Below are positions 1-64,000 of a stretch of DNA of 64,000 bases, one piece after another. Origin of the DNA: an uncultured virus (IMG/VR IMGVR_UViG_3300031746_000009) (Duplodnaviria; Heunggongvirae; Uroviricota; Caudoviricetes); the IMG/VR virus record IMGVR_UViG_3300031746_000009. One strand, 5' to 3'. The translations under genes and the position numbers were made by a program. Under the pieces are notes generated by a model. It worked only from the letters and a program-made list of their open reading frames with translations. It searched no databases and had not been told where the DNA came from. Position 1 is the first letter of the stretch. Each line of letters begins with the position of its first letter.

Positions 1-126
1 TTGGGGAAACATATTTGCGGAAGCGTAGTCGGGGTCGAAGCAAGTTTTATCATGTGGACTGTTTTGAGGCGATGAGCCTATGAAAGGTCGCAAGTGTAGC
101 ATAATTTCGAAAAGCGAGGGAAAGAA

Positions 127-333
127 ATGAGCGATGAAAACTACGAGGACTATTTTGAACCAGAGGATGAAGAATCACCTTGCGATTACGGTATGGACTC
201 ACCATGTGTGGAGCCAGCATTGCGGAATATGGGCAATTGTTTTGAATGTTGGCTATATCTGGAAATGTGTGAAGAGCAAGAAACAGAACAAAAGAAAAAG
301 GTTGAACCGAAGGGTGAGGCTGAAGCCAAATGA
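127..333 (+). CDS. small acidic Cys-rich hypothetical protein
   Basis: ATGA-coupled member of early array; CxxC motif. Confidence 0.6.
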   Translation: MSDENYEDYFEPEDEESPCDYGMDSPCVEPALRNMGNCFECWLYLEMCEEQETEQKKKVEPKGEAEAK

Positions 334-527
334 AGGACTGTACTAGGGTTAGGCGTCTCACAAAACTGTATGTTGCCATGAACGCTATGGCGATTGACTT
401 GGTTAGTGCCACTGTTGTTCTTGAACGGTTGTTGCCTGACACGAATTTGAAGGACACCTTCTGGGTCAAATTTAATGGCTTGACGGATTTGGGGCGGGAA
501 CGGTTCCTAAAGGAGATTCAACCATGA
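330..527 (+). CDS. hypothetical protein
   Basis: 4-nt overlaps with both neighbours. Confidence 0.6.
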   Translation: MKDCTRVRRLTKLYVAMNAMAIDLVSATVVLERLLPDTNLKDTFWVKFNGLTDLGRERFLKEIQP

Positions 528-829
528 CTCAGCGTCTAGACACATATCACCTTCCCGACAAGATATTCACGCTTAAAGAAAAGGACATGGCTACCACATT
601 CAGAAGCTTATGCAACATCGACGAGCACACCACTTTTTCGAGTGACACTTTCCGCATGTACGGACTAGACAGGTTCATCATGGACAGGGCGCATGGGACT
701 GGAGGGTTTTTTGCGAAGCTTGTTGCTAACGGGCTTGTCGTGCAGGTTGGGTGGGTGCGGAGCTGTTTGCCTAGTAATCATGGGCGTATGATTCGGACGT
801 ATAGGTGGCTTGGAGAAAAGAGAACATGA
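524..829 (+). CDS. hypothetical protein
   Basis: ATGA coupling; GGAG SD upstream. Confidence 0.65.
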   Translation: MTQRLDTYHLPDKIFTLKEKDMATTFRSLCNIDEHTTFSSDTFRMYGLDRFIMDRAHGTGGFFAKLVANGLVVQVGWVRSCLPSNHGRMIRTYRWLGEKRT

Positions 830-1104
830 AGAAAAAATATGAGATAGCCTTTTTCCTATGCTTCGTCTTCGTTGGCGGACTCATGTTGATAGTGGGGCAA
901 GTTCTGATGTGGAGAGGAACCACAGTTGAATGGAAAGACACAAGTTGGTTCTCGGGTCATTGGGTCGCAAGGTACACAACTGAGTTTTATAATGGGCAAT
1001 GGCTGTTCTTTTTCGGCTTAATTATAACGGGGTTTGGTGCCATTGGTGCTTTGGCTATTGGAAGCTCTAGACTAATGGACAAAATTAGGGGGGAAAAGGC
1101 TTGA
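826..1104 (+). CDS. two-TM membrane protein
   Basis: Two hydrophobic segments; ATGA overlap at 826. Confidence 0.65.
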   Translation: MKKKYEIAFFLCFVFVGGLMLIVGQVLMWRGTTVEWKDTSWFSGHWVARYTTEFYNGQWLFFFGLIITGFGAIGALAIGSSRLMDKIRGEKA

Positions 1105-1274
1105 GTGATGTGTGTTTGGAAGGGTTAAGCCACGGCAACATCGAAGTCAGTCAGCTTCGTTTGGGTGGGAAAAAGAGGCGTAAGCCAAATGAGTGCACAG
1201 AGAGCGATGAGGTGGGGAAGGCTTGGACGGTTATCAATCCAACAGTGTTGAAGGAGTGGAGCGGAGAAAAATGA
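1101..1274 (+). CDS. 57-aa protein, allele of 40304..40489
   Basis: Manual translation MSDVCLEGLSH...AWTVINPTVLKEWSGEK shares both termini with 40304..40489. Confidence 0.65.
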   Translation: MSDVCLEGLSHGNIEVSQLRLGGKKRRKPNECTESDEVGKAWTVINPTVLKEWSGEK

Positions 1275-1585
1275 GTGAAGATTTGGTTACCACAAAACAG
1301 CAGTTCATAGACGCGATTTTCAAGCTTGCAACGGAAGAGAATGTTTCGCAACGTTGGAATCTTAGTACTATGCCTTGGAGTTCCGGTTTTGTTTTTGATG
1401 CTCTTGCGAAGGCTGGTTTTGTGGTGTTGAACAAAAAAGCCTTACAGCAACTCGCTAAAAGTATTGACCCAAGAAACTGTAAAGATTGCAAACTAGACCA
1501 GTGCGGTGAATCTGATGATGCATATTGTGGTGGTGGCATGATGCGCTTGTTCATTGAGGCAATTTGTGGGGGCAAACCAGAATGA
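1271..1585 (+). CDS. hypothetical protein, allele of 40581..40835
   Basis: Shared QQFIDAIFKLATEE...VVLNKKAL; different C-terminus. Confidence 0.8.
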   Translation: MSEDLVTTKQQFIDAIFKLATEENVSQRWNLSTMPWSSGFVFDALAKAGFVVLNKKALQQLAKSIDPRNCKDCKLDQCGESDDAYCGGGMMRLFIEAICGGKPE

Positions 1586-1845
1586 GTTTGAAGCAGAAAA
1601 TCGAGCAAAAAGCACTGGACATGCTCAATCGAGTAGACGATGAAAGAGGTCTTACCATAATTGAAAAGGGCAATGTCAAACGGTTTCTTTCATACTATGT
1701 TGATGATGTTGTGGGTTTGCTAGACAAGGCAACCGAGCAGATTCTTTTCAGATTACGAACTTATGTCAAGACGGTTCCTGTTGATATGGCTATTTCCATT
1801 GTAGAACAAGAATTGGGTGTTGAAGGGAGAGAAACCAAGAAATGA
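1582..1845 (+). CDS. hypothetical protein, allele of 40832..41113
   Basis: Shared MSL, GLLDKAxEQI and ETKK. Confidence 0.75.
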   Translation: MSLKQKIEQKALDMLNRVDDERGLTIIEKGNVKRFLSYYVDDVVGLLDKATEQILFRLRTYVKTVPVDMAISIVEQELGVEGRETKK

Positions 1846-2129
1846 GAAAGTGTCCTGAATGTGGCCATGAGGATAATCCTTTGTGGGAGTATAGCCGCTT
1901 CGAGTTCAACGCTGAGTACATGCGTTTTGAAGAGGCCATGCAACAGCCTGAACTTGAAGGGATTTGTTTGGCTCTCGTTGATGCAAAGACCCATGAACCG
2001 CTTGTCATTCCAGAACTGAACCTTGTTTATTATCGTCGTGGAACTGGTGGCCTAGAACTGTATCGGCAATCTATTCCAGATTTTCAGGTGAATCGAGAAC
2101 GAAAAAAGCATAAGAAGGTTGAGGGGTGA
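1842..2129 (+). CDS. CxxC zinc-ribbon protein (paralog of 2435..2776 and 43094..43396)
   Basis: CPECGHED..W..SR motif. Confidence 0.7.
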   Translation: MRKCPECGHEDNPLWEYSRFEFNAEYMRFEEAMQQPELEGICLALVDAKTHEPLVIPELNLVYYRRGTGGLELYRQSIPDFQVNRERKKHKKVEG

Positions 2130-2135
2130 ACTGGT

Positions 2136-2438
2136 TTGGGAGATAAAAGTTCAGGTGTGAAGCCTAGAGAGCGGGATTCACCGTCCATTTCTCTTGTGGG
2201 TTCAGTCGCATCTCCTTTCTCCGTACAAAACCAGCATCCCACCAAGTGGCATTGTGAAGAATGTGGTGTTCCACTGCCTCAATATTCAGGCAAACCTAGT
2301 GCGTGGAAAAAGAAGCAAGATGGAAAACCTATTCTTTGTATTAAATGTGCTAGATCGAAGAATATACAGAGGTATATACAGAAGTGTAGAAAGATGAAGG
2401 CGCATTTCTTGAAGAGGATAGGAGAACAAAAAACATGA
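2136..2438 (+). CDS. zinc-finger protein, allele of 41613..41897
   Basis: CEEC...CIKC; first 35 aa near-identical to partner. Confidence 0.65.
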   Translation: MGDKSSGVKPRERDSPSISLVGSVASPFSVQNQHPTKWHCEECGVPLPQYSGKPSAWKKKQDGKPILCIKCARSKNIQRYIQKCRKMKAHFLKRIGEQKT

Positions 2439-2776
2439 GAGTCTGCCCGAAATGTAGATTTCATGACTTGCCAATTTGGAGAAATAGTAGATGGTATCAC
2501 GATGTGGACGCCGCACGCATTAGTGACATTGAATATTGGGACAAGGTACTTGCAACCAAAATACAATTGAATGGTTTCTGGGAAGACGGAATTTTCTCTT
2601 ATCTCCTTACTACAAACGGAATGGTTTTGAGAAAAGAGACAGAGTTTCTAAATAAAAATACAGATGGAAATACGGCAACGGAAAAGAAAGAAAAGTGGTT
2701 CAAAATTAGCATAGAAAAACATCGGAAGAAACAGGATTTGAAACAGTCTAAGTTGTTGGAGGTTTCGGGGGTTTGA
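2435..2776 (+). CDS. CxxC zinc-ribbon protein
   Basis: CPKC..D...WRNSRW. Confidence 0.7.
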   Translation: MRVCPKCRFHDLPIWRNSRWYHDVDAARISDIEYWDKVLATKIQLNGFWEDGIFSYLLTTNGMVLRKETEFLNKNTDGNTATEKKEKWFKISIEKHRKKQDLKQSKLLEVSGV

Positions 2777-3303
2777 GAAGCCTTCATCTTAGTGAAGAGA
2801 AAAACGCTGAAAGAAAACGGCTATACGATAAAGGCTTAACTGACAAGCAAATGGCTGAGGAACTCGGCATCCACAAAACTACCTTAGTGTCTTGGCGAAA
2901 CAAACACAAGTTGCCATTACACCCTTCGAGAGGTAACATGCTTTCTGATGAAGATGAGGCTTTGAGGCGCAAACTCTATCGCATGGGCTTGAGTGATGGA
3001 GTGATTGCTAGGAAAGTTGGGGTAGCACCTATAACAATTTATGGTTGGAGGCACAGCAGGAAACTAAAACCAAACTTTGAAACGTCCGTTTCCTCAGCAC
3101 AGAGGCGACAGCGTTGCGAGCAAACTAAGCAGATTTTGAGATTATATAAGCGAAAAAAGAGCCTGAACGAGATTGCTGAAACAGTTGGCTTGCCCTATCA
3201 GTCTGTTAGCGTTACGGTTGGACATTATCTTATGCGTTTGTGTCGAACTGAGTCGAGTTGCCCGTTTAAGGCATTGCTTCCAGAAACGGAGTTGAAATCT
3301 TGA
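2773..3303 (+). CDS. tandem helix-turn-helix DNA-binding protein
   Basis: Three HTH-like units (GLTDKQMAEELGIHKTTLVSWR; GLSDGVIARKVGVAPITIYGWR; SLNEIAETVGL). Confidence 0.8.
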   Translation: MRSLHLSEEKNAERKRLYDKGLTDKQMAEELGIHKTTLVSWRNKHKLPLHPSRGNMLSDEDEALRRKLYRMGLSDGVIARKVGVAPITIYGWRHSRKLKPNFETSVSSAQRRQRCEQTKQILRLYKRKKSLNEIAETVGLPYQSVSVTVGHYLMRLCRTESSCPFKALLPETELKS

Positions 3304-3617
3304 GGAGCCTTCTCACATGCCACGGCGACTATCTTTGGGCTGACGCAGACGACTTTTGCCTCACAGAATGCACACAGGTTGAAGAGTGCAAACGGTTTTC
3401 CGAGCTACTTCATGTTCCTAACATAGTATTCTGTAACGTGGAGAAGAGGGCGAGGGCGCAACAGCGTTGTGAGGCTTGGTTGAAACGTACTGAAATCTAC
3501 GTTAAATCTTATGTGGTTGGGTTCAGTCCTAGTATGCGGTTTAAGCGAGCGATTCAGTTTGGCCAGTTGAGGCGTGGCTTGGTACTTCGAAAGAGGATGG
3601 AGGAAAAACGGCGATGA
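3300..3617 (+). CDS. Cys-rich hypothetical protein, near-identical to 42780..43097
   Basis: 105 aa; 2 substitutions versus partner. Confidence 0.8.
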   Translation: MRSLLTCHGDYLWADADDFCLTECTQVEECKRFSELLHVPNIVFCNVEKRARAQQRCEAWLKRTEIYVKSYVVGFSPSMRFKRAIQFGQLRRGLVLRKRMEEKRR

Positions 3618-4276
3618 ACGAAATAGCGATAGACCACATAGATTATTCAAGAACTATGCTCAGAGAAATTGACGGCCAAACAATCGCAGATTTAAAAGAA
3701 AGCATCAAAAAACATGGCGTCCTGCAGCCTATCATCGTTTTCTTGAATGAAAAGCAGAGGTACGAGGTTATTTGTGGGAATCATCGTCTTTGCGCTGCGA
3801 AAGGTGTCGGATTGAAAACGATTCCTTACATAATCAGGCAACTCTCTCACCCTCAAGATGCTCTGATTTTGGCTTTAAACGAGAACATTCAACGTTTGGA
3901 AATGAATCCGTTTAGAGAAGGCGAAATCTATGTTTCTCTGCTTGAGGACTTCACTATTGATGTTCTGTGCGGGAAACTTGGTAAAAGCCGATACTATGTT
4001 GAGGGAAGAGTTAAGCTTTTCAAGAATCTACATGTTGACTTAAAAAACCAAGTTGGAAAAACGTTGACTCTTGGTAATGGTCTTAGTTTAGCTCGATTGC
4101 CTCAGAGTCAACAGCTTGAGGTTTACCAGAAGATAGTAGAAAATCTCAATACAGTTCCTCAAAAAATAAGATACGGAGGAGATGGTGGTTGGAGCAATTC
4201 GCCTTATTGCACTTGCGAGAAATGTGGTGCAAAACATTTGAAAGGAGTCAATGTTATTGATGAGCGAAAAACTTAG
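3614..4276 (+). CDS. ParB/Spo0J-like protein
   Basis: SIKKHGVLQPI, GNHRL, ENIQR and HTH. Confidence 0.9.
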   Translation: MNEIAIDHIDYSRTMLREIDGQTIADLKESIKKHGVLQPIIVFLNEKQRYEVICGNHRLCAAKGVGLKTIPYIIRQLSHPQDALILALNENIQRLEMNPFREGEIYVSLLEDFTIDVLCGKLGKSRYYVEGRVKLFKNLHVDLKNQVGKTLTLGNGLSLARLPQSQQLEVYQKIVENLNTVPQKIRYGGDGGWSNSPYCTCEKCGAKHLKGVNVIDERKT

Positions 4277-4715
4277 TTGTCCTAGATGTCGTAGCGACCA
4301 AATAGTGAAAAGTGGAACACACTATAATTTGAAAGGTGTTGTGCAGCGTTGGCAATGCAAGTTATGTGGCACTTCATTCTGTAATAGCGGATACTTCAGG
4401 GGAAAACATGCTCTTGCGCTCGTGCAATATGCCGTGGTTCTATACAGTCAAGGTTTAAGTTACGAGAAAGTAGCCTCTAAAATAGAGGAGCAGTTCAAAC
4501 AAAAAGTGTCTCGAACCACAATCAAAAATTGGGTAGACATGCTACATGTCCAACCGAGACCTAAAAACTCTGGAAACCAGAAAGACAAGACCGTGCGGGA
4601 ACTCATAGAAATAGGCATGGTTACGACGGTACGTTTTGCTTCTTCAGAAGTGCCTGAAAAATTCTTGATACTTGATAATCAGTCTAGGCTTTTGGTGGGG
4701 GAGGAACAGCGTTGA
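4260..4715 (+). CDS. InsA-like zinc-ribbon plus HTH protein (no transposase catalytic domain)
   Basis: CPRC..IVKSG...QRWQCKLCG then HTH. Confidence 0.7.
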   Translation: MSEKLSCPRCRSDQIVKSGTHYNLKGVVQRWQCKLCGTSFCNSGYFRGKHALALVQYAVVLYSQGLSYEKVASKIEEQFKQKVSRTTIKNWVDMLHVQPRPKNSGNQKDKTVRELIEIGMVTTVRFASSEVPEKFLILDNQSRLLVGEEQR

Positions 4716-4894
4716 ACACTTTGAAACAGCAAGTGTACGAACGATTTTTCTGGTGTACATGGACTTTCTTTACCGCTATCATATGTGGTAACCAGCTTCT
4801 CAGTGCCTTTTTTGCCACGGTTGGGATGGTTTGGCTTATCATGTTTCTTGATGTGTGGCTTGAACCTGAAAAATGGAAGCAAAAACAATGTTAA
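4712..4894 (+). CDS. small membrane protein, allele of 43393..43584
   Basis: MNTLKQQ...FLDVWLEPEKWKQKQ shared. Confidence 0.75.
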   Translation: MNTLKQQVYERFFWCTWTFFTAIICGNQLLSAFFATVGMVWLIMFLDVWLEPEKWKQKQC

Positions 4895-5130: not shown

Positions 5131-5899
5131 ATCTTCTAGCTCTCCCGATTCGACACACATCAGTGAATATGACAGTAAGCAAGGTAACATTCCTAGCATC
5201 AGGTCACAAGTATTCCACGAGTTAGACCAGAATCCATTAAACACGGCTAAGTATCTTGCGAAAATATTGAACCTTCCATACCAAAAATATCGTGGTTACT
5301 TGAACAAGCTACGGTACGAGTGGAAATATGACCACAAAAATGAGCGAGGTTCAAAGCCTTCAAAGTTGCATTGTTTTCGGGCGTGGGTTTTGTTGCGTGG
5401 TTTTGAGTGTCCGAGTAGGGTTGAGGCTTTGAGGGTTGGTTGGGAGCCGACTCGGGCTAAGAACCGTTTTATAGTTTTTAAGGAGTCGTTGGGTCGTGTT
5501 GTGTGGTTTGAGACTGGCCTTGTTCTAGTTAGTGTTAGGGCTCCTGGCAATTTGGGTAGGGCGAAGCAGCTTTTCTGTGATGCTTTCGTGAACACGGGGC
5601 TTATCTGTGATATTAAGGTTATGAATGGGGTTCTTGAACGTGTCAGGAACGATAATGTTCATGCTCCGTATGTGACAGGTCAAAGGCTGCCGAAGTTGGT
5701 GATCACGGATTTCGCTGAGAGCCACGGCATCATCATAAAGGTTGGTGACAGGTCGCATCCTAACGCGGTTGAAGTGATCGCTGGGTTTACTGAGAGCATG
5801 AGGAGTATTGCGAATTTCTTTGACGATTTGAGGATGGGTCTAAACGGCAAAACTGAGAATGGGAATGGGCATGATAATTCTGGGGGAATGGTTGTTTGA
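5123..5899 (+). CDS. putative winged-helix DNA-binding protein (probable CTG start)
   Basis: Frame open upstream of TTG 5267 to CTG 5123 with GAGGTG SD; the extension completes an HTH-like segment. Confidence 0.6.
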   Translation: MSKSSSSPDSTHISEYDSKQGNIPSIRSQVFHELDQNPLNTAKYLAKILNLPYQKYRGYLNKLRYEWKYDHKNERGSKPSKLHCFRAWVLLRGFECPSRVEALRVGWEPTRAKNRFIVFKESLGRVVWFETGLVLVSVRAPGNLGRAKQLFCDAFVNTGLICDIKVMNGVLERVRNDNVHAPYVTGQRLPKLVITDFAESHGIIIKVGDRSHPNAVEVIAGFTESMRSIANFFDDLRMGLNGKTENGNGHDNSGGMVV

Positions 5900-6174
5900 A
5901 GGAGGGTGAGAAAGTCTATCGTTTGGTTGCTTATTCTGATGTTCAATGTGAGGAAAGCGGTAGAACCATTCCTGCAGGTCAGACGTTTTTATTAGACGTT
6001 ATACCATATCCAGATGGAAGCAAACATAATCACAAAATTGGTGAGGAGTGTTGGCATGGTCCTAAAGACGTTATTATCGATCTGACGAAGAAACCTTGGA
6101 GAAAAGGCTTCAGAGAAGATGGCTATCGTCAAATGATGCGTCGTGCTAGAAGGCAACCTTGGAGAAATTATTGA
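5896..6174 (+). CDS. hypothetical protein
   Basis: TTGA overlap; Cys/His residues suggest metal binding. Confidence 0.6.
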   Translation: MKEGEKVYRLVAYSDVQCEESGRTIPAGQTFLLDVIPYPDGSKHNHKIGEECWHGPKDVIIDLTKKPWRKGFREDGYRQMMRRARRQPWRNY

Positions 6175-6347
6175 AGGTTTTGGGGTTGATGAAATGAAAA
6201 AAGAAACTTTAGCTTGGGACTATCAAACCTTCAAGACGATTAGTGAAGCTTCAAAAGTTAACAGGGTTAGTTTGCGTCGGGATGTGATGCGGCTGGCTGA
6301 ACTGTTGGGTGTAGAGTTTGAAGGATTCAGGAGGGAGCTGAAGAAAC

Positions 6348-7220: not shown

Positions 7221-7224
7221 TTAA

Positions 7225-7341
7225 ATGATGAGTAATAAGGAAGAGGTTTATGACCCATGCTGTGACTGTGTGATTGAAGTAGCTAAACAACAAGGAAAAT
7301 ACTTCTGTCAGCTCTGTCGAAAAGTGAAGGGAAAAGTTTGA
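7225..7341 (+). CDS. 38-aa Cys-rich peptide
   Basis: Manual translation MMSNKEEVYDPCCDCVIEVAKQQGKYFCQLCRKVKGKV; GAGGAG upstream. Confidence 0.5.
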   Translation: MMSNKEEVYDPCCDCVIEVAKQQGKYFCQLCRKVKGKV

Positions 7342-7372
7342 TTACTAACTTGCTTCATGGAGGTTTTGAATT

Positions 7373-55667: not shown

Positions 55668-55674
55668 TTATTAC

Positions 55675-56187: not shown

Positions 56188-56499
56188 CTAATTCATTATC
56201 ATGAAGACGGGGTGGTTTCTGTTGAGGTTAAGCATCACAAGCCCGTCTGGGGTCACGTAGACTCCGTTGAGGTTTAGGAATATTTGTCCGTCAAGGGTTA
56301 CTGCCAAAGTTTTCTCGTCAAACAACACTTGTCCGTCTGTTGTTATGAACAGGTTTTTGGCGTACCCTATCATTCCGCCAAGAAATGCGGGTGCTGTGAC
56401 TGCGGGCGCAGGTGTTCCGTATTCGGGCCAGTAGTCTTCCTGCCAATAGTTGCTAGGCCAATAAGTGGTTTGCCAATACCCTGCCTTCAGCAACGCCAT
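56188..56499 (-). CDS. small protein with YWxxx repeats
   Basis: YWQTTYWPSNYWQEDYWPEY; three T.DG repeats. Confidence 0.6.
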   Translation of the reverse strand: MALLKAGYWQTTYWPSNYWQEDYWPEYGTPAPAVTAPAFLGGMIGYAKNLFITTDGQVLFDEKTLAVTLDGQIFLNLNGVYVTPDGLVMLNLNRNHPVFMIMN

Positions 56500-56512
56500 C
56501 CTAATCTGGCTC

Positions 56513-58099
56513 CTACGGGTCAGTGGCTATTGCTGTTCTGTTTCCGTTAGCATCCACGGTTGCTCTTATGCGGTCTGTGTTGTCGGCTTGGTTGCGGAAG
56601 CGGATGTCGTTTGTTCCTCCGCCCGACGATTTGCCCGCTAATGCTGCAAGCATGAGCCTTACTGATTGGCGAAGGGTGACTCCTGTTTCTGTGACTTCAT
56701 CATGGACTGCGTCTGCGATTGCTGCAAGAGTCAACAGGTCAGTTACCGCTTTTGCATTCACCACGTCTAGGTCAACAACGGCCACATCAGTTAGAAGGTC
56801 GTCGGTGTTGGTTTTGATTAAGTCAAGTATCAAGTCTAAACGTCCACCGTTAACCCAGTCCGTTTGAAGTTCATTGGTGTCTGCGAGGGTTGCGTCAATT
56901 AGAAGGTCTAAGCGTCCACCATCATGTAGATCAGTCTGCAACTCGTTGGTATCTGCCACTATCGCCATCGTGTCCGCCAAGATTGCAGATAGGTCGCCGT
57001 TCACGTCCGCTATTTCTGCGTTTCGAGTCTGGTAGATTGCGACGGTCGCTTCTTCCCATCCGAATTCGACTGTTAAGGATTCTTCGGTTGCGTCGTTTGC
57101 TACTTTGACGAAGCAGAAGAACTTTCCCGCTGCGTCTCTTTCAAGTGCTCGCCAACCGTCTGCCGCTGGAAAAGTTACGAGGTTGGTTGCGTTGTCTAAA
57201 GCGTTGGCTAAACCGTTTTCTTTGTAGAGGGTTGCGGTGATGAATGTGCCGTCGTCTTTGACTAGGCGGATTATGACTTCAGCGTTGTCGGGGTCTTCCA
57301 TGTTTCCGACTGTGTCGTAAAGGTTGCTGGATATTCTGTAAGCCTCATTTCCCGCGTCAGGCTTGCTCAAATATGCGGGTACGGCTGCGGTGAATCTTGT
57401 GTTGTTCTGTACTGCGGTGACTGCGGTGAGGACTGCTAGTAGGTCTGTGTCGTGGATGTTGTCTACGACTGTTTTCAACGCGGGCAAGTCGGTAGCATGT
57501 ACATCACCGATATTTGTGATTGCGGTTCCAACATCAGTGTGAATGTCCGCAACGTCAGTATGTAAGTCGGGCAAGTCAGTATCGTGGATATTATCCAGCA
57601 CCACGTCAATCTGGTCTTTCAACAGGTCGTTGACGCTTCCCGCCGTGTTCACCGCTGGAACCGCGTTGTCTAATCCTGCATCTACTGCTGTTTCCAAACT
57701 GGCTTTCATGGTTGCTCCGAAGTCTATGTTGTCTATGCTTGCCACGTTCACGTTCTGTGTTGCCGTGTCCAAGTCGAACGCATGCTGTGCTGAGGCGTGC
57801 CCGTAGGTTTCTATGACCAGGCATCGGTCAAGCCATATCTTCGGGCTGGTTTGGTCTATAATGTATAGGACGACTCTTGCAGCCGTCATCTCCGTTGCGG
57901 TGAGCACGAGTGAGTAGCCTGTGCCCTCATCCGTGAAGCTGTTGGTTGTGTTGGCTTCCGCGCCTTCATCCTTCATTATTTTGACGTCGCCTGCGGCGTA
58001 TGCGGCTGTGGCAACTAAGTCTGTGCCGTCGAGCTCGTAGAGGCAGAAGTCTAAGGTTGCGGCTTCCGCGTACTTGCGCTGGTATATGGCTCCCATCAA
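56513..58099 (-). CDS. fibre-like virion protein with acidic coiled-coil repeats
   Basis: DNIHDTDL and ADTNELQTD..GGRLDL repeats; C-terminal DANGNRT. Confidence 0.7.
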   Translation of the reverse strand: MMGAIYQRKYAEAATLDFCLYELDGTDLVATAAYAAGDVKIMKDEGAEANTTNSFTDEGTGYSLVLTATEMTAARVVLYIIDQTSPKIWLDRCLVIETYGHASAQHAFDLDTATQNVNVASIDNIDFGATMKASLETAVDAGLDNAVPAVNTAGSVNDLLKDQIDVVLDNIHDTDLPDLHTDVADIHTDVGTAITNIGDVHATDLPALKTVVDNIHDTDLLAVLTAVTAVQNNTRFTAAVPAYLSKPDAGNEAYRISSNLYDTVGNMEDPDNAEVIIRLVKDDGTFITATLYKENGLANALDNATNLVTFPAADGWRALERDAAGKFFCFVKVANDATEESLTVEFGWEEATVAIYQTRNAEIADVNGDLSAILADTMAIVADTNELQTDLHDGGRLDLLIDATLADTNELQTDWVNGGRLDLILDLIKTNTDDLLTDVAVVDLDVVNAKAVTDLLTLAAIADAVHDEVTETGVTLRQSVRLMLAALAGKSSGGGTNDIRFRNQADNTDRIRATVDANGNRTAIATDP

Positions 58100-58656
58100 T
58101 AATCATACTCTTCAATCAAGGTTTTCGTTTGCTGTGTAGAAGCAACCGTATAAGTGATTTTGAGTCTAGCCCTTCTGACCCTGATTGCGCCGCTTGAGGG
58201 TCTGTGGCTTGTGCATCTTAACGTGCAACTGTTGATGTTTGCGAGAGACGCGAAAAACGCTGTAACATCTACCGCCACATACATCCAAGTGTCTGAATCG
58301 TCAATCGGACAATTCAGTTTTTCAGTGAAGTTGACGCCGTCCAAAGAAAGTGCACAATGAACATAAGTGCCTAATACGCCTGAACGGGATTCTACTTCTA
58401 ACTCGATTTGGGTTATGGTTGCAAAATCGGTTATTGCGGTGTTTGCGAAATCGTAGTTGCGGTCTATTTGGTCGGTTACTTGTGAGCTGATATAGTTTGC
58501 GTCAGAGTCATTCAGATAAGGAGTTAAACCTGTCGGTGTCCAAGTTTGTACGTCTGCTGTGAAGTTGTTGACATAGAGATATTCGGTTGCCACGGTTAGC
58601 CTTCCATCCTCTGTTATCTTCTCATAATCTTGCTTATGGAACCGTCTGGGTTCCAA
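58096..58656 (-). CDS. beta-rich minor structural protein
   Basis: Coupled in structural operon. Confidence 0.6.
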   Translation of the reverse strand: MEPRRFHKQDYEKITEDGRLTVATEYLYVNNFTADVQTWTPTGLTPYLNDSDANYISSQVTDQIDRNYDFANTAITDFATITQIELEVESRSGVLGTYVHCALSLDGVNFTEKLNCPIDDSDTWMYVAVDVTAFFASLANINSCTLRCTSHRPSSGAIRVRRARLKITYTVASTQQTKTLIEEYDY

Positions 58657-58898
58657 GCGAAATCCAGTTCATACAGAACTTCACCGTTCTTATATGCTAC
58701 TAGACGGTTTAATGTGCCGTCTGAATTCCAGTCCACATCTAAATCGTCCCACTTGTCACTGTTCTGTTGATTCAACTTCTTTTCACGGTACTGCTTCAAA
58801 ATCTTGGTCGAATCAACTTCTGGTTCTTCCTCTACCTCGGAGATACCTTTGAGTCTAAGCAGTTTAGACGCTTGTTCAGACATAACCTTTTTCACCAA
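58614..58898 (-). CDS. hypothetical protein
   Basis: Two WNxDG motifs. Confidence 0.6.
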   Translation of the reverse strand: MVKKVMSEQASKLLRLKGISEVEEEPEVDSTKILKQYREKKLNQQNSDKWDDLDVDWNSDGTLNRLVAYKNGEVLYELDFAWNPDGSISKIMRR

Positions 58899-59254
58899 AT
58901 GGGATAGTTAGCGAAGAACTCGCAGAACTCCATCAGCGGCTTCTCTGTCCTGCGGAACCTGTTCATAATCTTGTCTAACGCGACTATTATGGCGCAACGC
59001 AACATTGCGAAGTGGCCGCGTGGATCAATTTCGATGGTGTGCCACATGGTCACGTATGATTGTGGATGGTTTTGCTTGTCTAGGAAGGCGAAATGCTCGA
59101 CTTTCCACAGGTTAGTGTAGTTGATCCAGTAGGGCGGGCGAGTCCATTTGCCGAGGTGTCTGCGGCGTGGGCGACAGTAGAGGCATGTGAAGTGAAACCG
59201 TTTCAATTCGGGGTGGGGGCACAGTTTTCCCGCGCACCAGAGTCTAGTCAACAT
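58892..59254 (-). CDS. hypothetical Cys/His protein
   Basis: Fills operon. Confidence 0.5.
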   Translation of the reverse strand: MLTRLWCAGKLCPHPELKRFHFTCLYCRPRRRHLGKWTRPPYWINYTNLWKVEHFAFLDKQNHPQSYVTMWHTIEIDPRGHFAMLRCAIIVALDKIMNRFRRTEKPLMEFCEFFANYPIW

Positions 59255-59471
59255 GTGGTTTTATCTCTTTAGGCTTCGGTTTAACCATTTCTGGTGTTGT
59301 GACGGTGCTTTTGTTTCCAAAAGTTGCTACTTGCGCGTCTCCGGATGTTGGTTCAAATAAAGGTAATGTGTCAGTCATTCTAATGACTGTTTTCGGCTCT
59401 TCAATCTTCACCATGCGGCAAGGGTCAAAGTCTTCTGAATCAACGTCTGTAACGTGGCCTGCAACATACAC
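59244..59471 (-). CDS. hypothetical protein following MCP
   Basis: In operon; true start uncertain. Confidence 0.5.
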   Translation of the reverse strand: MYVAGHVTDVDSEDFDPCRMVKIEEPKTVIRMTDTLPLFEPTSGDAQVATFGNKSTVTTPEMVKPKPKEIKPHVD

Positions 59472-59579: not shown

Positions 59580-60494
59580 TTATGCTAGGCAGGTTGTGAA
59601 TTCCCAGATTGCGTTTGGCCTTTTAATGACGGGTACGACGGCTTCCCACACTTTTCCTTGATAGTTCATTGTTGGCAGTTGAGCCAAATAGTTGGTTATG
59701 TCTGCGCCTATGAGTAGTTCAAAGTTGCCGGGTGTAGTGTCAACGAGTAATGCAGAGTCTAATATGCCTGTTGCGCTGTAGCAACTGTCGCTGACTATGA
59801 TGTTCTGTTGTCCGCCAAGCAGTTCGCCTAAAGCTTCAAAACCCCATTTCTCTGAGGGTGTTGGCAATAGTTGTTCGAAGCATGGTCCGTAGACTGCGGA
59901 GGGCATGATGGTCTTGTATGGTCCCATGTGGCCTAATGCTCGTAAGCCTGCTTTTCCTGTGGCAATATCCGCTAACGCGGCTATTGGGCCTGCGCCTGCG
60001 GCTGCGTCCCAGTTGGCGCCGTTAGTCGTGTTGGCTGCTGCGCGTCCTGATCGTAGGCCTGCGAGTCCCATTGCTGGCCAAGTGGTGTCTTCGCCTGAAA
60101 TAATCAGACGGTCTTCTTCTTCTGCTACTTGTCGGGCTGCGTTTGTAGCATGTTGAGTGTTCAAGTCTTCGCCTGAGTCTCTGCGTTTTAGTACGTCTCT
60201 CCAGTGTAGGTTGTAGTCTTTGCTTATGATTGGAATATGCACATGAGATTCAGTCAGGTCCACTAGGTCCATTGACTGTTCTTCGCCTGTCATGCTGATG
60301 GTTGCTTGTCCCATGTCGTTTTCAGTGTAGTACGTGTACTGTGTGAAGCCTGCGCTTGCCAGCGACTTTGTGGGCATGAGTGTTCTACCTACGAGTAACG
60401 GGCGAACGGTTTTGACTATGCTTGTTTCGATAAGGTTGATTTCGTAGTCTGTGAGTGTGCCTGTTGCGAGTCCAATTCGTTTCATAGTGTTCAT
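59580..60494 (-). CDS. major capsid protein, HK97 fold (encapsulin/linocin-M18-like)
   Basis: LVGRTLMP, IPIISKDY.L.WRD, AARQVAEEEDRLIISG, PVIKRPNAI. Confidence 0.85.
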   Translation of the reverse strand: MNTMKRIGLATGTLTDYEINLIETSIVKTVRPLLVGRTLMPTKSLASAGFTQYTYYTENDMGQATISMTGEEQSMDLVDLTESHVHIPIISKDYNLHWRDVLKRRDSGEDLNTQHATNAARQVAEEEDRLIISGEDTTWPAMGLAGLRSGRAAANTTNGANWDAAAGAGPIAALADIATGKAGLRALGHMGPYKTIMPSAVYGPCFEQLLPTPSEKWGFEALGELLGGQQNIIVSDSCYSATGILDSALLVDTTPGNFELLIGADITNYLAQLPTMNYQGKVWEAVVPVIKRPNAIWEFTTCLA

Positions 60495-60504: not shown

Positions 60505-60984
60505 CTAAATGATGAGTTTGACGAGGACCCAGTCGCAGCATGCAGAAATGTCAGTGGTCTTGTTTTCTAAGCTGTAGCCTATACATTGTCCTGCGGTTGC
60601 TCCAGCCTTAACCATGCCTGCGGCGGCAGAGACCAGTTTTGTTCCTACGGCGATTGTTTCGCCGCTTTTAGCGACAAGTTTAACGACTATGTCGCCTCTG
60701 AGGACGCGTATCTGGTCGGCTGCGGTGAATGTTTTGGTTAATGCTCCTCCTGCGGTTGGCACGTAGTACGCGGTGAGTTTCTGGTCGCTTGGAACGTCTG
60801 CGACGCCCAACACGATGGCTGAAGCGTCTCCTGCAACTTGGGCTTGATATTCTGCTGTGTTAGCAATCACAAGTCTGCCGGGGCCGAATGTGGTGACTGT
60901 TTCAACTTCCATCTCTTGGATTTCGGGTTCGCCAGCATAAAGTATGGCGTTTTTCGCCATTTCATGGTTTAATCCTTGTGGCAT
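60505..60984 (-). CDS. capsid decoration/cement protein
   Basis: Ala/Gly/Val-rich; IAVGTKLVSAAAG...IGYSLE; directly upstream of MCP. Confidence 0.7.
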   Translation of the reverse strand: MPQGLNHEMAKNAILYAGEPEIQEMEVETVTTFGPGRLVIANTAEYQAQVAGDASAIVLGVADVPSDQKLTAYYVPTAGGALTKTFTAADQIRVLRGDIVVKLVAKSGETIAVGTKLVSAAAGMVKAGATAGQCIGYSLENKTTDISACCDWVLVKLII

Positions 60985-61394
60985 TAGAAGTTGCCCCCTT
61001 CAGCGAGGATTTGCTCACGCGTTTTCCCATACAAGTCGCCGACTGTGGTTCTGCCAGCTTGACTGTCGCTTCCCGTGCGGATAGGCTTATAGGATGCGGT
61101 GTCTCCGCCTCTTGTTCTGCTCAATGTAGCGTCTATCTGCTGAAGCTGCTCAACCTTCATGGGTTCCAAGTCAGTGTCTTTGAAGTCGCTTTTGCTCATA
61201 ATCTTTATTTTCAAGTCTGCTTTCAAGTCGGTTTCGATGACGCTTGCAAGTTGGATGTTCTGTGCTTTGAGGGCTGTGTTTTCGTCTGCGAGTTCCGTGT
61301 TTATCTTGGCTAATCTAGCGTTGTCCAATGTTATTGAGGCTAGTTGCACTTGAACTGTTGAATCTAAAGCCGTTTCTTTCTGTTTATCAGTCAT
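60984..61394 (-). CDS. scaffolding protein
   Basis: Coiled coil; position between protease and MCP. Confidence 0.6.
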   Translation of the reverse strand: MTDKQKETALDSTVQVQLASITLDNARLAKINTELADENTALKAQNIQLASVIETDLKADLKIKIMSKSDFKDTDLEPMKVEQLQQIDATLSRTRGGDTASYKPIRTGSDSQAGRTTVGDLYGKTREQILAEGGNF

Positions 61395-61537: not shown

Positions 61538-61732
61538 CTATGCGTTCTTCCACACTATGACGGCGACCGCGTTTGGAATTCCGTTAAGCCAACCGAACCA
61601 AACAACGTTGACCGATGTTACAGATGTGGCCGCTGCACACACGTCGTTGATTGCTTTAGCTAATGATCCAGCGGTTGTATCGATGTCTCCTGTAGCGCAG
61701 GTTCCCGTTACGGTGCTTGTTTTAAAAGCCAT
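61538..61732 (-). CDS. small hypothetical protein
   Basis: GAGGTGA SD. Confidence 0.55.
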   Translation of the reverse strand: MAFKTSTVTGTCATGDIDTTAGSLAKAINDVCAAATSVTSVNVVWFGWLNGIPNAVAVIVWKNA

Positions 61733-61749
61733 TTGTCATTCACCTCACC

Positions 61750-62856
61750 TTACAGTGGGTGTCTTCGGTCTGCCCTGTTCTTTTCAATGACGCTTTGCTC
61801 CCGCATCTTCAAGAGTTCTTTGCTTCTGTCTATGAGTTGTTCAACGGTCTGTTCCGGTTCAGGAGCTGATGGCGGTATTGTGGGTGGTGGTGTTATAGGT
61901 GGAACTGGTATTGTTGGCGTTTCTACTGGTTTAGCGGGTAATGCCGGACTTGCAGGCGGTGTAATCGTTGGTGCTGGCGGAAGCTCTTTTGTTCCCACAT
62001 ACGCATCCCAATAGTCTTTAGCCTGTTGCTCAGTGTAACCTTCAATCTTACGTTGCTTCACAAACTCTAGGAACTCTTCGGGTTTTGTTTCACTCAATCC
62101 TTTCTTACCTCCTACAACTTTCTTTTCTTGAACTGTCACCCCTGACGCGGCAGCGATAAACCGTCTCACATTTTTTTCGCTTCCAATCCCACAATTTGGA
62201 AAAGTACAACGTCCACGCCAGACCCCGGCAGCTACGTGGTCAATCAACATGTCCCGCATAACCAAATCATAAGGAATTCCATGCCAAACGCCGGGAGTTG
62301 GGTCGGTTGCGTAGTAGAAGCCTATGCTCACGTCTTTGGGTGGTCCAGTCTTTGCGGCTGCTGCTCTGATTTCTTGGAGAAAGTCTTGCGGGCACTGTTC
62401 TTTGTCAAAGTTTAAGATGCCACGAATGCGGTCCCGGTCAAAGAAAGGTTTCTCAACTGTGCCGTACATGTCATGTTGGCTCACGATAACCTTTTCTGGG
62501 GGATGATCCTTAACGATGATTTTGGCTGCTCGCGCAGTACGTGTGGCATTCAGTAATTCCTGTCTGCTCCATAAACATTGTTTGTCTTCGCCTTTTGGTC
62601 CTGCGGGGAAGGTGTAGACACCTTCCTTGGCGATGACGGCTTGAACTTTGAGGCAGCAGTTACTGTCTTCAACGATTTGCATGGGTTCCGCAAAGACGGC
62701 TAATTGGACAGTTGCGGATGCTGGTGTAGAGTCTCCTTTGAATTTGCTGTGGCAGATGGCGGCACGTTGTTCGGAGTCATATTTCTGCATGTCTGGGTAT
62801 GCCATGCAACGTTGCATGAATTGTTCTTCTGTTTCTCCCTCATTAGGTTCGGGCAT
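61750..62856 (-). CDS. DUF2213-like prohead protease
   Basis: IAKEGVY, DHP, DVSIGF, DHVA...GRC; Pro-rich tail. Confidence 0.78.
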   Translation of the reverse strand: MPEPNEGETEEQFMQRCMAYPDMQKYDSEQRAAICHSKFKGDSTPASATVQLAVFAEPMQIVEDSNCCLKVQAVIAKEGVYTFPAGPKGEDKQCLWSRQELLNATRTARAAKIIVKDHPPEKVIVSQHDMYGTVEKPFFDRDRIRGILNFDKEQCPQDFLQEIRAAAAKTGPPKDVSIGFYYATDPTPGVWHGIPYDLVMRDMLIDHVAAGVWRGRCTFPNCGIGSEKNVRRFIAAASGVTVQEKKVVGGKKGLSETKPEEFLEFVKQRKIEGYTEQQAKDYWDAYVGTKELPPAPTITPPASPALPAKPVETPTIPVPPITPPPTIPPSAPEPEQTVEQLIDRSKELLKMREQSVIEKNRADRRHPL

Positions 62857-62904
62857 GTTTTTTCACCTTTATGTTGTTGTATCCGATTTTTGTCATGTTT
62901 TAAG

Positions 62905-63618
62905 TCACCATGACTTGGGAAACCTTGCGGAACATAGAGTCAACCGTTCCCTCCAAGGATGCAAGAGACGTTGCAGTTGACAGGTACGCACATAGTCTGC
63001 GCATCGGCATTGCGGCACATGTTTGAATGCAGCGTAAATGTAGCCGTAGACTGATAGGATGTGACGCCAACCCAACCTTGTCTTCGCCAACATGTGCAGT
63101 GGTTCGACGCCTAACTGATAATAGGCGATGCCCTGTTCAACCCAATACATGAGGCTGTGGGTTGCGCCGGGCTTTCTAAGCATGGCAGGGTCTACCTTGT
63201 AGTAGACGGCTTTGAGGCCGTGGCGTTGAAATTCGAAGTGGATTGCCGAGTCGTCGCTGTACGGGTCAAATTTGCCGTGCATGATTTTTTGGAAGCTGGA
63301 CACTTTGATTAGTTGCGCCAGTCCGAGGCCGCACACGTCGGGCTTGTCTTTGAGGTTGCCTTCTATGAAGTTTGGTGGAAGCCATGCGTCGCTGTCAACA
63401 CGCAAGATATAGTCAAAGTCATTGAGTCTAATGTGTTTTAGTCCGTTGTTCAATATTTTTGCTACGCGGGCAGGCCATGTGGATGCTTCCACTTTTTCTG
63501 TGAGCAAGACCATGAGTGATATGGGAACCGTTTGGCTTGCTAGGCAAGAAAATATTTGCGGTTGCAAGTCTGATGGTTGAATGAGCATGACGCAGAGGAT
63601 TCTTATTTTATGATCCAC
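62905..63618 (-). CDS. glycosyltransferase (GT-A, family 2-like)
   Basis: DYILRVDSD. Confidence 0.75.
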   Translation of the reverse strand: MDHKIRILCVMLIQPSDLQPQIFSCLASQTVPISLMVLLTEKVEASTWPARVAKILNNGLKHIRLNDFDYILRVDSDAWLPPNFIEGNLKDKPDVCGLGLAQLIKVSSFQKIMHGKFDPYSDDSAIHFEFQRHGLKAVYYKVDPAMLRKPGATHSLMYWVEQGIAYYQLGVEPLHMLAKTRLGWRHILSVYGYIYAAFKHVPQCRCADYVRTCQLQRLLHPWRERLTLCSARFPKSW

Positions 63619-63995
63619 CAGTCGGGGAACACGTTGTGAAACTCTAGTTCACTGTGTTGTTGCCTGAATTCGTCTACGGCTTGGCAGACTTCTAACACTT
63701 TGCGGTGAAGATAGTCGTGTCCTCCGATTACTCCGCCCTTTTTCAGTAGCGGATAATAGTTTTCTATGTCCTGTTTCACGTTGACGTAGTTGTGGTTTCC
63801 GTCTATGTATATGAAGTCTAAAGGTTCAGTTATGTCATCGTGGGCTTCGTTGGATGGTTTTCTGATAAATACTGTTTCGTTGAAGTTGCCCAGTTTGTCT
63901 TTAGCCGTTCTGTCTTTTCCCTGATAGTTTAATTGTCTTCCATGCTCCAAGTATGGAACGTAAGGGTCTATGAGGAACAGTTTCTTGACTGGCAA
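63603..63995 (-). CDS. class I SAM methyltransferase (Methyltransf_24-like), 5'-truncated
   Basis: DFIYIDGNH.Y..V..D...LKKGGVIGGHDY. Confidence 0.85.
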   Translation of the reverse strand: MPVKKLFLIDPYVPYLEHGRQLNYQGKDRTAKDKLGNFNETVFIRKPSNEAHDDITEPLDFIYIDGNHNYVNVKQDIENYYPLLKKGGVIGGHDYLHRKVLEVCQAVDEFRQQHSELEFHNVFPDWWIIK

Positions 63996-64000
63996 CTCTT

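Follow-up and report, generated by a model that had tools for sequence, protein, structure and literature searches.

The window analyzed here is the whole 64,000-nt stretch of the uncultured-virus record IMGVR_UViG_3300031746_000009 of IMG/VR (Caudoviricetes), in which the original prediction saw one early-gene chassis coupled to two unrelated virion types, spindle-like and HK97 head-tail. Unit A, 38,554 bp long (108-38661), and unit B, which runs from 38662 past the window end at 64000, meet at a shared 269-nt segment (38393..38661, plus strand), through which A closes and through which the window enters B. The units also share early-gene cassettes and a pair of secreted proteins. We read A and B as separate mobile elements from a single uncultured archaeal host community, threaded together through this short shared sequence, and give that reading a probability of about 0.55.

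Open reading frames (ORFs) were called mechanically across the window, and a nonoverlapping set of 105 was kept. Paralogy within the window was determined by blastp of the ORF set, DNA repeats by a repeat search and blastn, and membrane topology by a hydropathy script. The G+C content is 0.42 to 0.46 as far as 46 kb and 0.48 over 46-64 kb. A tRNA scan and an Rfam scan of the whole window gave zero matches, so no tRNA attachment site can be proposed.

Gene content of unit B

Judged from its genes, unit B represents two arms, early and tail-head, of a temperate HK97 head-tail virus. The head-tail module placed at 46-64 kb by the original prediction is genuine, with matches to a major capsid protein (MCP), a protease, and a decoration protein in Pfam and PHROG. 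The HK97-type MCP (59580..60494, minus strand) matches Pfam Linocin_M18 (6.8e-19) and DUF6260 (2e-10) and the major head protein family phrog_264. It is 58 to 72% identical to proteins in eight IMG/VR contigs, and tblastn in a phage collection gave three weak matches (29% identity over 27% of the query) in enterobacterial phages. As a single query in species genomes it found zero loci; locus scans of IMG/VR and of species genomes depend on conserved words, and a miss there does not prove absence. Also on the minus strand are a decoration/cement-like protein (159 aa, 60505-60984) and a 136-aa head protein (together 60505..61394; phrog_673 and phrog_766, scaffold/decoration families), a prohead protease (61750..62856; Pfam DUF2213, 9e-10; phrog_530, 3.5e-11), and a 237-aa protein with a methyltransferase that is open at the window end (62905..63998; Methyltransf_24, 1.2e-11).

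The distal tail or baseplate-side genes (46097..50306, minus strand) encode proteins of 611, 121, 104, 289, and 276 aa, with 30 to 43% identical homologs in the same order in the related genomes G001 and G002. Among the 10 tail and head-tail connector genes (54530..59471, minus strand), 9 have homologs in one to seven B-type genomes or loci each and one (58096-58656) has none; 54530-54964 matches phrog_1219, a tail needle family, at 7e-4. Over the whole of 46-64 kb, 19 of 25 genes match at least one B-type genome or locus by phmmer, including the signal-bearing pair described below. The early array (38662..45906, plus strand) carries three DNA methyltransferase genes according to Pfam and PHROG (38634-39632, 41110-41607, and 42037-42783).

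B-type genomes share one plan, an early arm converging on a tail-head arm, and lack the A core. G001 and G002 are 46,947 and 45,660 bp long and are classed as having direct terminal repeats, with 127 identical terminal bases each as determined by script. The G001 gene set comprises an MCP, a cement protein, a protease, a portal, a large terminase, an integrase, and a PAPS reductase. Its homolog of the B decoration protein matches Pfam Phage_cement (5e-5), and its protease gene is followed by Phage_portal_3 (1.2e-31) and Terminase_6N/6C. The window ends inside the head arm, before the portal and terminase of B, which by analogy with G001 are expected past 64000.

Gene content of unit A and its relatives

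Unit A encodes an AAA+ ATPase of the archaeal-virus type (13243..14205, minus strand), which matches the "DnaA-like" family phrog_11254 at 6.7e-12 and a second "DnaA-like" PHROG family at 2.8e-8. None of its 63 homologs in a large protein collection has a Pfam domain or an informative name. In metagenomes, a profile of the family retrieved 31 loci, and a genome titled Bathyarchaeia gave one more; metagenome stretches reaching about 10 kb to either side of the ATPase gene are referred to as A-type loci. The profile retrieved zero loci in IMG/VR, as did the ATPase, the adhesin, and the 240-aa protein as single queries; the ATPase as a single query found zero loci in species genomes, and its profile matched nothing meaningful among PDB sequences. 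In a tblastn search of a phage and archaeal-virus collection, archaeal nontailed viruses made up 19 of the 20 matching records. These matches are all weak, the best being SMV4 (1e-3, 23% identity over 63% of the query), with SMV3 at 3e-3, ATV at 6e-3, and APOV1, SMV1, and thalassapleoviruses also represented. Among four reference genomes, the nearest phmmer matches were AvPV1 gp10 (3.7e-7) and the ApPV1 AAA+ ATPase (5.2e-5), and members of the family match SSV1 B251 at 1.5e-5 (phmmer, small database). Because this ATPase is common to spindle-shaped, pleomorphic, and droplet-shaped viruses, it does not discriminate among them.

The group conserved in relatives consists of the ATPase, a 128-aa protein, and a tyrosine recombinase. 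The 128-aa gene (14211..14597, minus strand) always lies upstream of the ATPase gene and has homologs in 21 A-type loci. The recombinase of the A core (268 aa; 11771..12577, minus strand) has the R..K..HxLR..W..Y pattern in an alignment; its homologs adjoin the ATPase in six A-type loci, and the ATPase-adjacent proteins of loci L027 and L040 match Pfam Phage_integrase. With both unit A recombinases as queries, tblastn against the phage collection gave zero matches. Divergent from the trio, relatives encode a 570- to 1,240-aa protein, a small protein with two to four transmembrane (TM) segments, a protein of about 550 to 610 aa with a signal and C-terminal anchors, and a multipass protein of about 150 aa. 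The contigs of about 18 to 19 kb (L014 and L035) add one or two two-helix proteins of about 100 aa, a 133/176-aa protein, and a doubly anchored 240/252-aa protein.

By hydropathy, many proteins of 13-31 kb have an N-terminal hydrophobic segment, C-terminal anchors, or both. The divergent membrane block of unit A lies on the plus strand and opens with a 697-aa protein (14759..16852), whose positional equivalents in A-type loci are 573 to 1,244 aa long and which has weak homology to three of them (4e-7). A 151-aa multipass membrane protein and a 300-aa secreted, C-anchored protein (18884..20238) were recognized by hydropathy and have homologs in A-type loci. Conserved beside the hairpin gene described below are a 133-aa protein and a 240-aa protein that is anchored at both termini (26698..27823); both have homologs in L014, and in L035 the 133-aa protein was found by phmmer and the 240-aa protein by tblastn at the locus end. 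A 67-aa membrane protein, a 199-aa signal-anchored protein, and a 699-aa secreted protein with C-terminal anchors (27824..30777) were identified by hydropathy and an internal DNA repeat. In the 699-aa protein (28678-30777), a run of approximately 63-aa repeats (189-nt DNA spacing, LNFFG-type motif) precedes the C-terminal anchors. A ParB-like protein (31019..31837, minus strand; Pfam ParB_N/HTH_ParB) has a 45% identical homolog beside the adhesin in L013.

Pfam and PHROG scans of all ORFs of 1-38.6 kb revealed no HK97 capsid, portal, or large terminase; the sole "head and packaging" rows in A are small-terminase PHROGs on the helix-turn-helix (HTH) motifs of 2773-3303 and 34197-35480. In the A-type loci, the Pfam scan covered 94 of 134 proteins of at least 120 aa, from seven loci, with L018 and L035 left out as near-duplicates along with some short proteins from L027 and L012, and 0 of the 94 matched capsid, portal, or terminase families. 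Unit A thus characterized would be a circular, integrase-bearing, virus-like element that is non-HK97 and membrane assembled and that belongs to a large, undescribed family. No earlier description of this family was found in the literature, subscription journals lying outside the search, and look-ups of previous findings on the genome or its sequence came back empty.

Virion and surface-protein candidates of unit A

The candidate major virion protein is a helical hairpin of 99 to 110 aa (25668..26000, plus strand; 99 aa if started at the TTG at 25701). It has nine close homologs, with 25% identical ones in L014 and L035, and its AlphaFold2 (AF2) model has helices at 9-46 and 54-98 (pLDDT, 70). 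A 94-aa two-helix membrane protein (16854..17138, plus strand), recognized by hydropathy, is a second capsid candidate. Both have two hydrophobic segments and the two-helix architecture of about 80 to 100 aa of spindle-virus capsid proteins, an architecture that is generic. Neither candidate matched VP1_VP3 (PF06281) or His1_capsid (PF25665) in Pfam at an E value of ≤10, relatives of the candidates did not match these families at an E value of ≤1, and 25668-26000 was unmatched in PHROG. With the nine-sequence hairpin profile, hhalign gave probabilities of 0.3% for His1 VP21 and 0.2% for SSV1 VP3, in a comparison of low power (Neff of 2, single-sequence templates). A Foldseek search of PDB with the hairpin model returned nothing at an E value of ≤0.001. 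The best VIA Z score, 10.3, is under the noise level of about 13 for helical models, and the structures that ranked best, ATP-synthase c subunits and designed hairpins, are generic. In an Atlas feature search, the VP1_VP3 and His1_capsid clusters were the nearest named ones for both candidates (0.82 to 0.86), which is a lead only.

The spindle-like module of the original prediction therefore stands in part: two-helix proteins of about 100 aa, an ATPase, and secreted and membrane proteins are present, and a match to an SSV1 or His1 capsid protein is absent. The structural similarity proposed between 25701..26000 and the SSV1/His1 MCP was not found (hhalign, at most 0.3%; generic fold matches). 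A lack of such similarity in both candidates had been named as grounds for giving up the spindle assignment, and this is nearly what was observed.

Four proteins of unit A have a signal and a C-terminal anchor, at 17142-18884, 19336-20238, 24660-25421, and 28678-30777. The first (17142..18884, plus strand), modeled with AF2 (pLDDT, 90.5; 65-row alignment), is a membrane-anchored adhesin with a signal peptide, a carbohydrate-binding module (CBM), three FN3-like domains, and three C-terminal helices. Its CBM (model residues 29-215) gave VIA Z scores of 16.8 to 8wab_B (root mean square deviation, 3.5; 167 residues aligned) and 14.3 to 7vbo_A, and the FN3-like domains scored about 10 to FN3 domains. 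Among the Foldseek matches listed for the adhesin are FN3/Ig ectodomains, adhesins, and phage structural proteins, and 1,005 representative relatives were found at an E value of ≤1e-3. A pleolipovirus spike was absent among the listed Foldseek and VIA matches of this protein, which is one of the four signal-plus-anchor proteins.

Several of the small two-helix proteins start with a basic stretch, [KR][GA], and a hydrophobic run, which resembles a class III signal. Genes for a type IV leader peptidase lie in L014 (10163-10675, minus strand) and L040 (7263-7763, plus strand), with Pfam Peptidase_A24 matches of 1.7e-7 and 3.1e-6, respectively. The candidate virion proteins at 16854-17138 and 25668-26000 may undergo pilin-like processing.

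The ATPase family and the gene order point to an archaeal nontailed, membrane-assembled virus. Alternatively, A may not be a virus at all, and would be an integrative plasmid or a vesicle-forming or surface-remodeling island acting on the host surface. Capsid homology of any kind was not found, the adhesin is a generic CBM-plus-FN3 surface protein with more than 1,000 representative relatives, the IMG/VR scans gave no A relative, and some relatives encode a type IV leader peptidase, an enzyme typical of cell-surface filament systems, all of which would suit such an element. However, 19 of the 20 viral records matched by the ATPase are virion-forming archaeal viruses, and the compact gene set of the contigs of about 18 to 19 kb mirrors that of His1 and thalassapleoviruses (ATPase, integrase, two-helix protein, doubly anchored protein, and adhesins). 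In addition, no match to conjugation or replication-initiator Pfam families turned up in the scans of A and of its relatives' proteins. As rough odds, a spindle-shaped virus and a pleomorphic or otherwise enveloped virus are equally probable, at slightly better than one chance in three each, and a nonviral element is unlikely, at somewhat over one in four.

Shared early arrays and shared secreted pair

The arrays at 1-4890 and 38555-43583 had been proposed to be colinear relatives, and the DNA and protein comparisons within the window bear this out. The early array of A (108..4894, plus strand) contains small ORFs, an HTH protein (2773-3303), a ParB-like protein (3614-4276), and a Zn-ribbon protein (4251-4715), as assigned with Pfam and PHROG, and is a mosaic relative of 38662-43584. 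In total, 11 colinear DNA segments, together 1,318 nt long, share 71 to 100% nucleotide identity (repeat search and blastn). Five protein pairs were found: 1223-1585 with 40581-40835 (91% over 58 aa), 2136-2438 with 41613-41897 (67.5% over 80 aa), 2435-2776 with 43094-43396 (24% over 84 aa; E value, 6e-10), 3300-3617 with 42780-43097 (98% over 105 aa; 97% at the nucleotide level), and 4712-4894 with 43393-43584 (52% over 63 aa). This resemblance is far beyond chance. The first copy of the shared segment (1..107, plus strand) is 100% identical to 38555-38661; the repeat is at least 107 nt long, as the window start cuts its left side. Unrelated cassettes interrupt the shared segments, which makes the arrays mosaic relatives. 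The gap cassettes encode the HTH, ParB-like, and Zn-ribbon proteins in A and the three DNA methyltransferases in B. Some of the short shared pieces span stop/start junctions (e.g., 2397-2439 and 4687-4748), which is expected if recombination uses gene-boundary sequences.

A second shared block, not listed in the original prediction, is a gene pair present in both structural arms in inverted orientation. In A it encodes sequon-rich secreted proteins of 256 and 763 aa (21626..24694, plus strand), recognized as common to B by blastp and with outside homologs only in tailed-virus genomes; in B it encodes proteins of 951 and 265 aa (50890..54527, minus strand), whose homologs in G001, G002, L002, and L004 have N-terminal hydrophobic segments. 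The smaller proteins (21626-22396 and 53730-54527) are 59% identical over 261 aa. The larger ones (22403-24694 and 50890-53745) share 79% amino acid identity at their N termini, with 97% nucleotide identity over 86 nt, and 42% at their C termini. N-x-S/T sequons number 9 in the 256-aa protein, 33 in the 763-aa protein, and 29 in the 951-aa protein. The pair and other A proteins had no Pfam match at an E value of ≤10, so that a first impression of beta-helix-like repeats in the 763- and 951-aa proteins was given up, and a PDB sequence search with the 951-aa protein returned nothing meaningful.

The large secreted proteins of A and B share an aromatic C-terminal motif (W/G/Y rich, ending in GYP), and the G001 homolog (45705-46913) ends in a similar W-rich motif; this motif may be an anchoring or sorting signal. 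The protein at 53730-54527 and its relatives in G001, G002, L002, and L004 have basic-plus-hydrophobic N termini like signal anchors and many sequons. Such segments in a tail arm are unexpected for tail parts assembled in the cytoplasm, and the proteins that bear them may be secreted rather than virion parts.

Closure of unit A and its junction with unit B

Logan contigs from four sediment runs (X1 to X4) were aligned to positions 26001-46000 of the window. In all four runs, the assembly graph forks both before and after the shared segment. The segment forms a lone unitig in X3 (38393-38661; depth, 75) and in X4 (38392-38661; depth, 36), and loose ends precede it at 38374 in X1, 38220 in X2, and 38393 in X3. 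Beyond 38661, contigs of X2, X3, and X4 read as window positions 108-130, which indicates that A is closed as a circle or a tandem. The spacing of the exact repeat (1-107 versus 38555-38661) is 38,554 nt. Within the shared segment, positions 38429-38430 are AT in the window and TC in contigs of all four runs, including X1.

A 38,237-bp contig of another assembly encodes a 100% identical ATPase and matches the window at 99.8% (3300-17133), 97.8% (17142-20246), and 95.9% (20227-23147) identity. The joins for which the original prediction had wanted read support, at about 5-7 kb and 11 kb, are confirmed by this independent contig. Upstream of 3300 it differs from both arrays, another sign of cassette exchange. 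A further independent contig, L010, links 3300-4894 to the A core, and the longest contig in the cluster of the hairpin protein is 38,251 bp.

Contig word depth differs between the units. Among mismatch-free contigs of X1, depths are 21.3, 21.5, 23.6, and 22.6 on the A side (26.5-35.8 kb) and 30.6, 35, 33.3, and 36.5 on the B side (38.6-46 kb); depth climbs to 29 to 50 over 36-38.4 kb and is 53.7 at the shared segment. In X2, the A-side contigs have depths of 128 to 137, and the sole B-side piece listed has a depth of 8 with 17 mismatches. X3 is reversed, with bins of 47 to 59 at 43.3-45.3 kb against A-side pieces of 3 to 7. Stretches without coverage in X2 (33.3-35.3 kb and 38.67-39.3 kb) and the sparse coverage of much of 26-35 kb in X3 and X4 were given no weight. 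The excess of B is unlinked to A, and the two units vary independently. An X2 contig of depth 137 spans 36443-37604 with one mismatch, and the head of the early operon (35.8-38.4 kb) thereby belongs to A. On the B side, a 7,370-nt contig of X1 spans 43554-46000 and continues beyond it; judged by its size, it would reach about 50.9 kb, in the B tail arm.

Because the A-to-B join sits in the shared, branching 269-nt segment, co-integration is unproven, and the adjacency of A and B is most likely an assembly path through that segment or at most a minority cointegrate. The alternative is that the adjacency is real and that, in part of the population, circular A has integrated into the early operon of a B genome or provirus by homologous recombination in the shared segment. 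Such a cointegrate should have the order B-left, segment, A, segment, B-right, and direct repeats 38,554 nt apart do flank A; homology would suffice, given 269 nt plus near-identical pieces in 36-38.4 kb (X1 depth, 29 to 50), and the X1 node depth of 53.7 fits both models. Branching on both sides of the segment in every run argues against it, as do the unequal A and B depths in X1 with opposite trends in X2 and X3, the complete B-type genomes without the A core, and the A-sized contigs that occur alone, so that we regard a real cointegrate as improbable, with about one chance in four. Coverage per unit, which had been proposed as a check, shows a difference between A and B, although some molecules may be cointegrates. 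A single composite replicon of at least 64 kb that encodes both particle types and chooses between them, as the original prediction had offered, would explain both modules and common early genes on one assembled record, but it is highly improbable, as A is self-closing, depths are unequal, each module is found alone elsewhere, B-type genomes lack A genes, and the only link is a join inside the repeat.

Direction of exchange and interpretation

All window proteins were compared by phmmer with two ORF sets, one from B-type genomes (211 kb) and one from A-type loci (235 kb; L010 and L034, near-identical to the window, were excluded). A-core genes match A-type loci only, and tail and head genes match B-type genomes only, except for one domain of the 951-aa protein. 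The early genes with outside relatives match only the B-type set (524-829, 1842-2129, 2435-2776, 3614-4276, and 35975-37003), as do 43094-43396, 43566-43952, and 44447-44665 of the B early array. The pair at 21626/22403 and five A early genes have zero matches in 29 A-type loci, and the A-type contigs of about 18 to 19 kb lack these early genes and the secreted pair. The head of the A early operon (35793..38392, plus strand) encodes a 78-aa protein, a 342-aa HTH protein, a 124-aa SprT-like protein, and small ORFs; the HTH protein (35975-37003) has 34% and 29% identical homologs in the tailed viruses G001 and G002, respectively. Parts of the A early operon (35.8-38.66 plus 0.1-4.9 kb) and of the secreted pair (21.6-24.7 kb) are 94 to 100% identical to B at the DNA level. 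Transfer from a tailed lineage to the A core is the simplest reading of these comparisons: the split of relatives suggests that a small A core gained its early operon and surface pair from the tailed lineage and thereby roughly doubled in size. The recently exchanged gene pool of the original prediction is supported in this way (up to 97 to 100% nucleotide identity), and its co-integration is unproven.

Several points weigh against reading A and B as two separate elements, A being a virus of the same archaeal community as B. Of 401 Bathyarchaeia genomes, only 2 gave a match to the ATPase profile, which leaves the host uncertain. Sequence, profile, and specific-fold comparisons matched none of the A proteins to a known capsid protein, and we infer the virion nature of A. 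The 128-aa family and gp09 and gp11, the ORFs that precede the thalassapleovirus ATPase, gave an hhalign probability of 0.1%. As for closure, we infer the circularity of the 38,237-bp contig from its size only, and the window start is perhaps an arbitrary cut, so that the repeat could exceed 107 nt. Contig word depth is a coarse measure; X1, which may be the source sample, carries 95% of the query words, and X2 to X4 may share one sampling campaign. The depths are compatible with all X1 copies of A being in cointegrates with part of the B population, because 22 plus 22 plus about 12 of free B fits 53.7 as well as separate replicons do. As for direction, early genes more than 10 kb from the ATPase in large relatives would be missed.

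Under the reading as two elements of one community, the hairpin proteins and anchored adhesins of A would enter the host membrane and be glycosylated in it with the aid of the element's own glycosyltransferases, and the ATPase would then drive DNA into the particle, which would exit nonlytically by budding or extrusion, like spindle-shaped or pleomorphic viruses. Parts would have crossed between the virus types during coinfection, by homologous recombination at conserved gene-boundary sequences. They could have been retained because take-over, regulatory, and anti-restriction genes and secreted surface proteins work with any particle type. A bolder reading is tentative, at about one chance in three: an HK97 virus and a membrane-assembled virus (spindle or pleomorphic) of the same archaeon would swap early-operon cassettes and a heavily glycosylated secreted pair near-identically, as host take-over and host-surface modules portable across realms. 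Through the shared early operon, either virus may then regulate its partner or shut it out, and the window cointegrate may be a real intermediate of this exchange.

As for the host, genome G338, of the same class as the genome behind L009, has the same trio (a 133-aa protein, the ATPase, and a 268-aa recombinase), adjoining small membrane proteins. The adhesin is missing from the Bathyarchaeia genome behind L009, and all that this genome has of the ATPase gene is a truncated copy at the end of a contig.

To our knowledge, sharing between unrelated archaeal virus types consists mostly of ancient, weak links or of one cultivated spindle/pleomorphic pair. The present link is recent (DNA identity of up to 97 to 100%), spans the widest structural gap, and has a readable direction. 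It brings to light a large family of compact archaeal elements, which our searches did not find in the viral contig collection, and it serves as a warning that a 64-kb "virus" contig can be two replicons joined via a 269-nt shared segment.

Accessory genes and sequence variants

A glycan/modification cluster of unit A (5267..11283, plus strand) contains a family 2 glycosyltransferase (GT2; 6348-7220), a radical-SAM/SPASM protein (7373-8392), a family 1 glycosyltransferase (GT1; 8389-9390), a methyltransferase (9387-9866), and a B12-radical-SAM protein (9868-11283), all assigned by Pfam; the last two have homologs in the A-type loci L013 and L018. A free-standing LAGLIDADG homing endonuclease gene (12559..13110, minus strand; phrog_5046, 2e-15; Pfam LAGLIDADG_1, 7e-4) is wedged between the ATPase and recombinase genes and overlaps the latter by 19 nt; another such gene lies elsewhere in L040. 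In L013, 13542-14714 is a TnpB/Cas12f-like gene (TNB domain, 1.9e-21). The 131-aa ORF at 26173-26568 has an odd His/Arg-rich composition and no relatives, and it may not be a gene; in X2, 26105-26273 is replaced by 175 other letters.

The strain-variable segment of A (32058..35480, mixed strands) comprises a second tyrosine-recombinase-like gene (32058-33164, plus strand; phrog_216, 3e-5; R..HxLR..Y pattern), genes for 64-aa and 204-aa proteins, and a ParB/HTH-fused DNA methyltransferase gene (34197-35480, minus strand; N6_N4_Mtase, 3.9e-24). A contig of depth 9 in X1 links position 33018 (second recombinase gene, 3' part) with 38959 (first B methyltransferase gene), with 36 other letters between them, and is probably a third related genotype. 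Counting 34197-35480 and the three of the B early array, four DNA methyltransferase genes lie within 64 kb; the fifth methyltransferase (63603-63998) is of the Methyltransf_24 type and is labeled a DNA methyltransferase by PHROG. Two of the window's methyltransferases are fused to or associated with ParB/HTH parts. This methyltransferase load suggests heavy anti-restriction investment.

Comparison with known systems

Unit B and its relatives resemble temperate archaeal head-tail viruses (e.g., Fuxiviridae and Kunpengviridae of Bathyarchaeia) in having an HK97-type MCP, a protease, a portal, a large terminase, an integrase, and a PAPS reductase, with converging arms. In contrast to these viruses, the tail arm of B carries proteins with N-terminal signal-like segments.

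For unit A, the likeness to the spindle-shaped viruses His1 (Halspiviridae) and SSV1 (Fuselloviridae) lies in a candidate virion protein of about 100 aa whose two hydrophobic helices are joined by a sequon-bearing loop, in glycosyltransferases, and in membrane-anchored adhesins. As in SSV1, the tyrosine integrase adjoins the ATPase, which likewise lacks a membrane domain. As in His1, a divergent ATPase and a GT1 are present, and the topology order after the capsid gene is 2 TM, N plus C anchored, 3 TM, and signal plus C anchor (His1 ORF21 to ORF23). Two published descriptions report the same kinds of parts in Huangdivirus of Bathyarchaeia, with VP1 to VP3, an AAA+ ATPase, an integrase, and a glycosyltransferase (PMC10848311), and in wyrdviruses of Asgard archaea, with an MCP, an adhesin, a five-gene block, and an ATPase (bioRxiv 10.1101/2021.07.29.453957). 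Unlike the spindle viruses, A has hairpin proteins without sequence or profile similarity to VP1/VP3 or VP21, and it lacks VP2 and a protein-primed polymerase. At 38.5 kb, it is more than twice the genome size of His1 and SSV1, and its early operon is common to tailed viruses.

Thalassapleoviridae supply the best ATPase matches among the four reference viruses by phmmer (AvPV1 gp10 and the ApPV1 ATPase), and there too an ORF of about 125 to 155 aa precedes the ATPase gene. With Thalassapleoviridae and Pleolipoviridae, A shares the order of a small membrane protein, a large signal-plus-anchor protein, and a small membrane protein, as well as an integrase, and its minimal relatives measure about 18 kb. 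It differs in that its structural genes are divergent from the ATPase gene rather than codirectional, in that its 128-aa ORF is unlike gp09 or gp11 of Thalassapleoviridae, and in that the modeled anchored protein, one of four candidates, is a CBM-plus-FN3 adhesin with no pleolipovirus spike among its listed matches.

Gene sharing across unrelated archaeal particle types has a precedent in the spindle-shaped Tebi-SV1 and the pleomorphic Tebi-PV1, which coinfect Halorubrum. According to their description, they share a repressor, an endonuclease, small proteins, an integrase, and an 88% identical noncoding region, and they co-occur in hosts (PMC13612827). The present case differs in that the partners are a tailed HK97 type and a membrane type, a wider structural gap; in that DNA identity reaches 97 to 100%; and in that a secreted pair inside both structural arms is also shared. 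With it, the Tebi precedent comes to include a tailed partner, near-identical DNA, and proteins within the structural arms.

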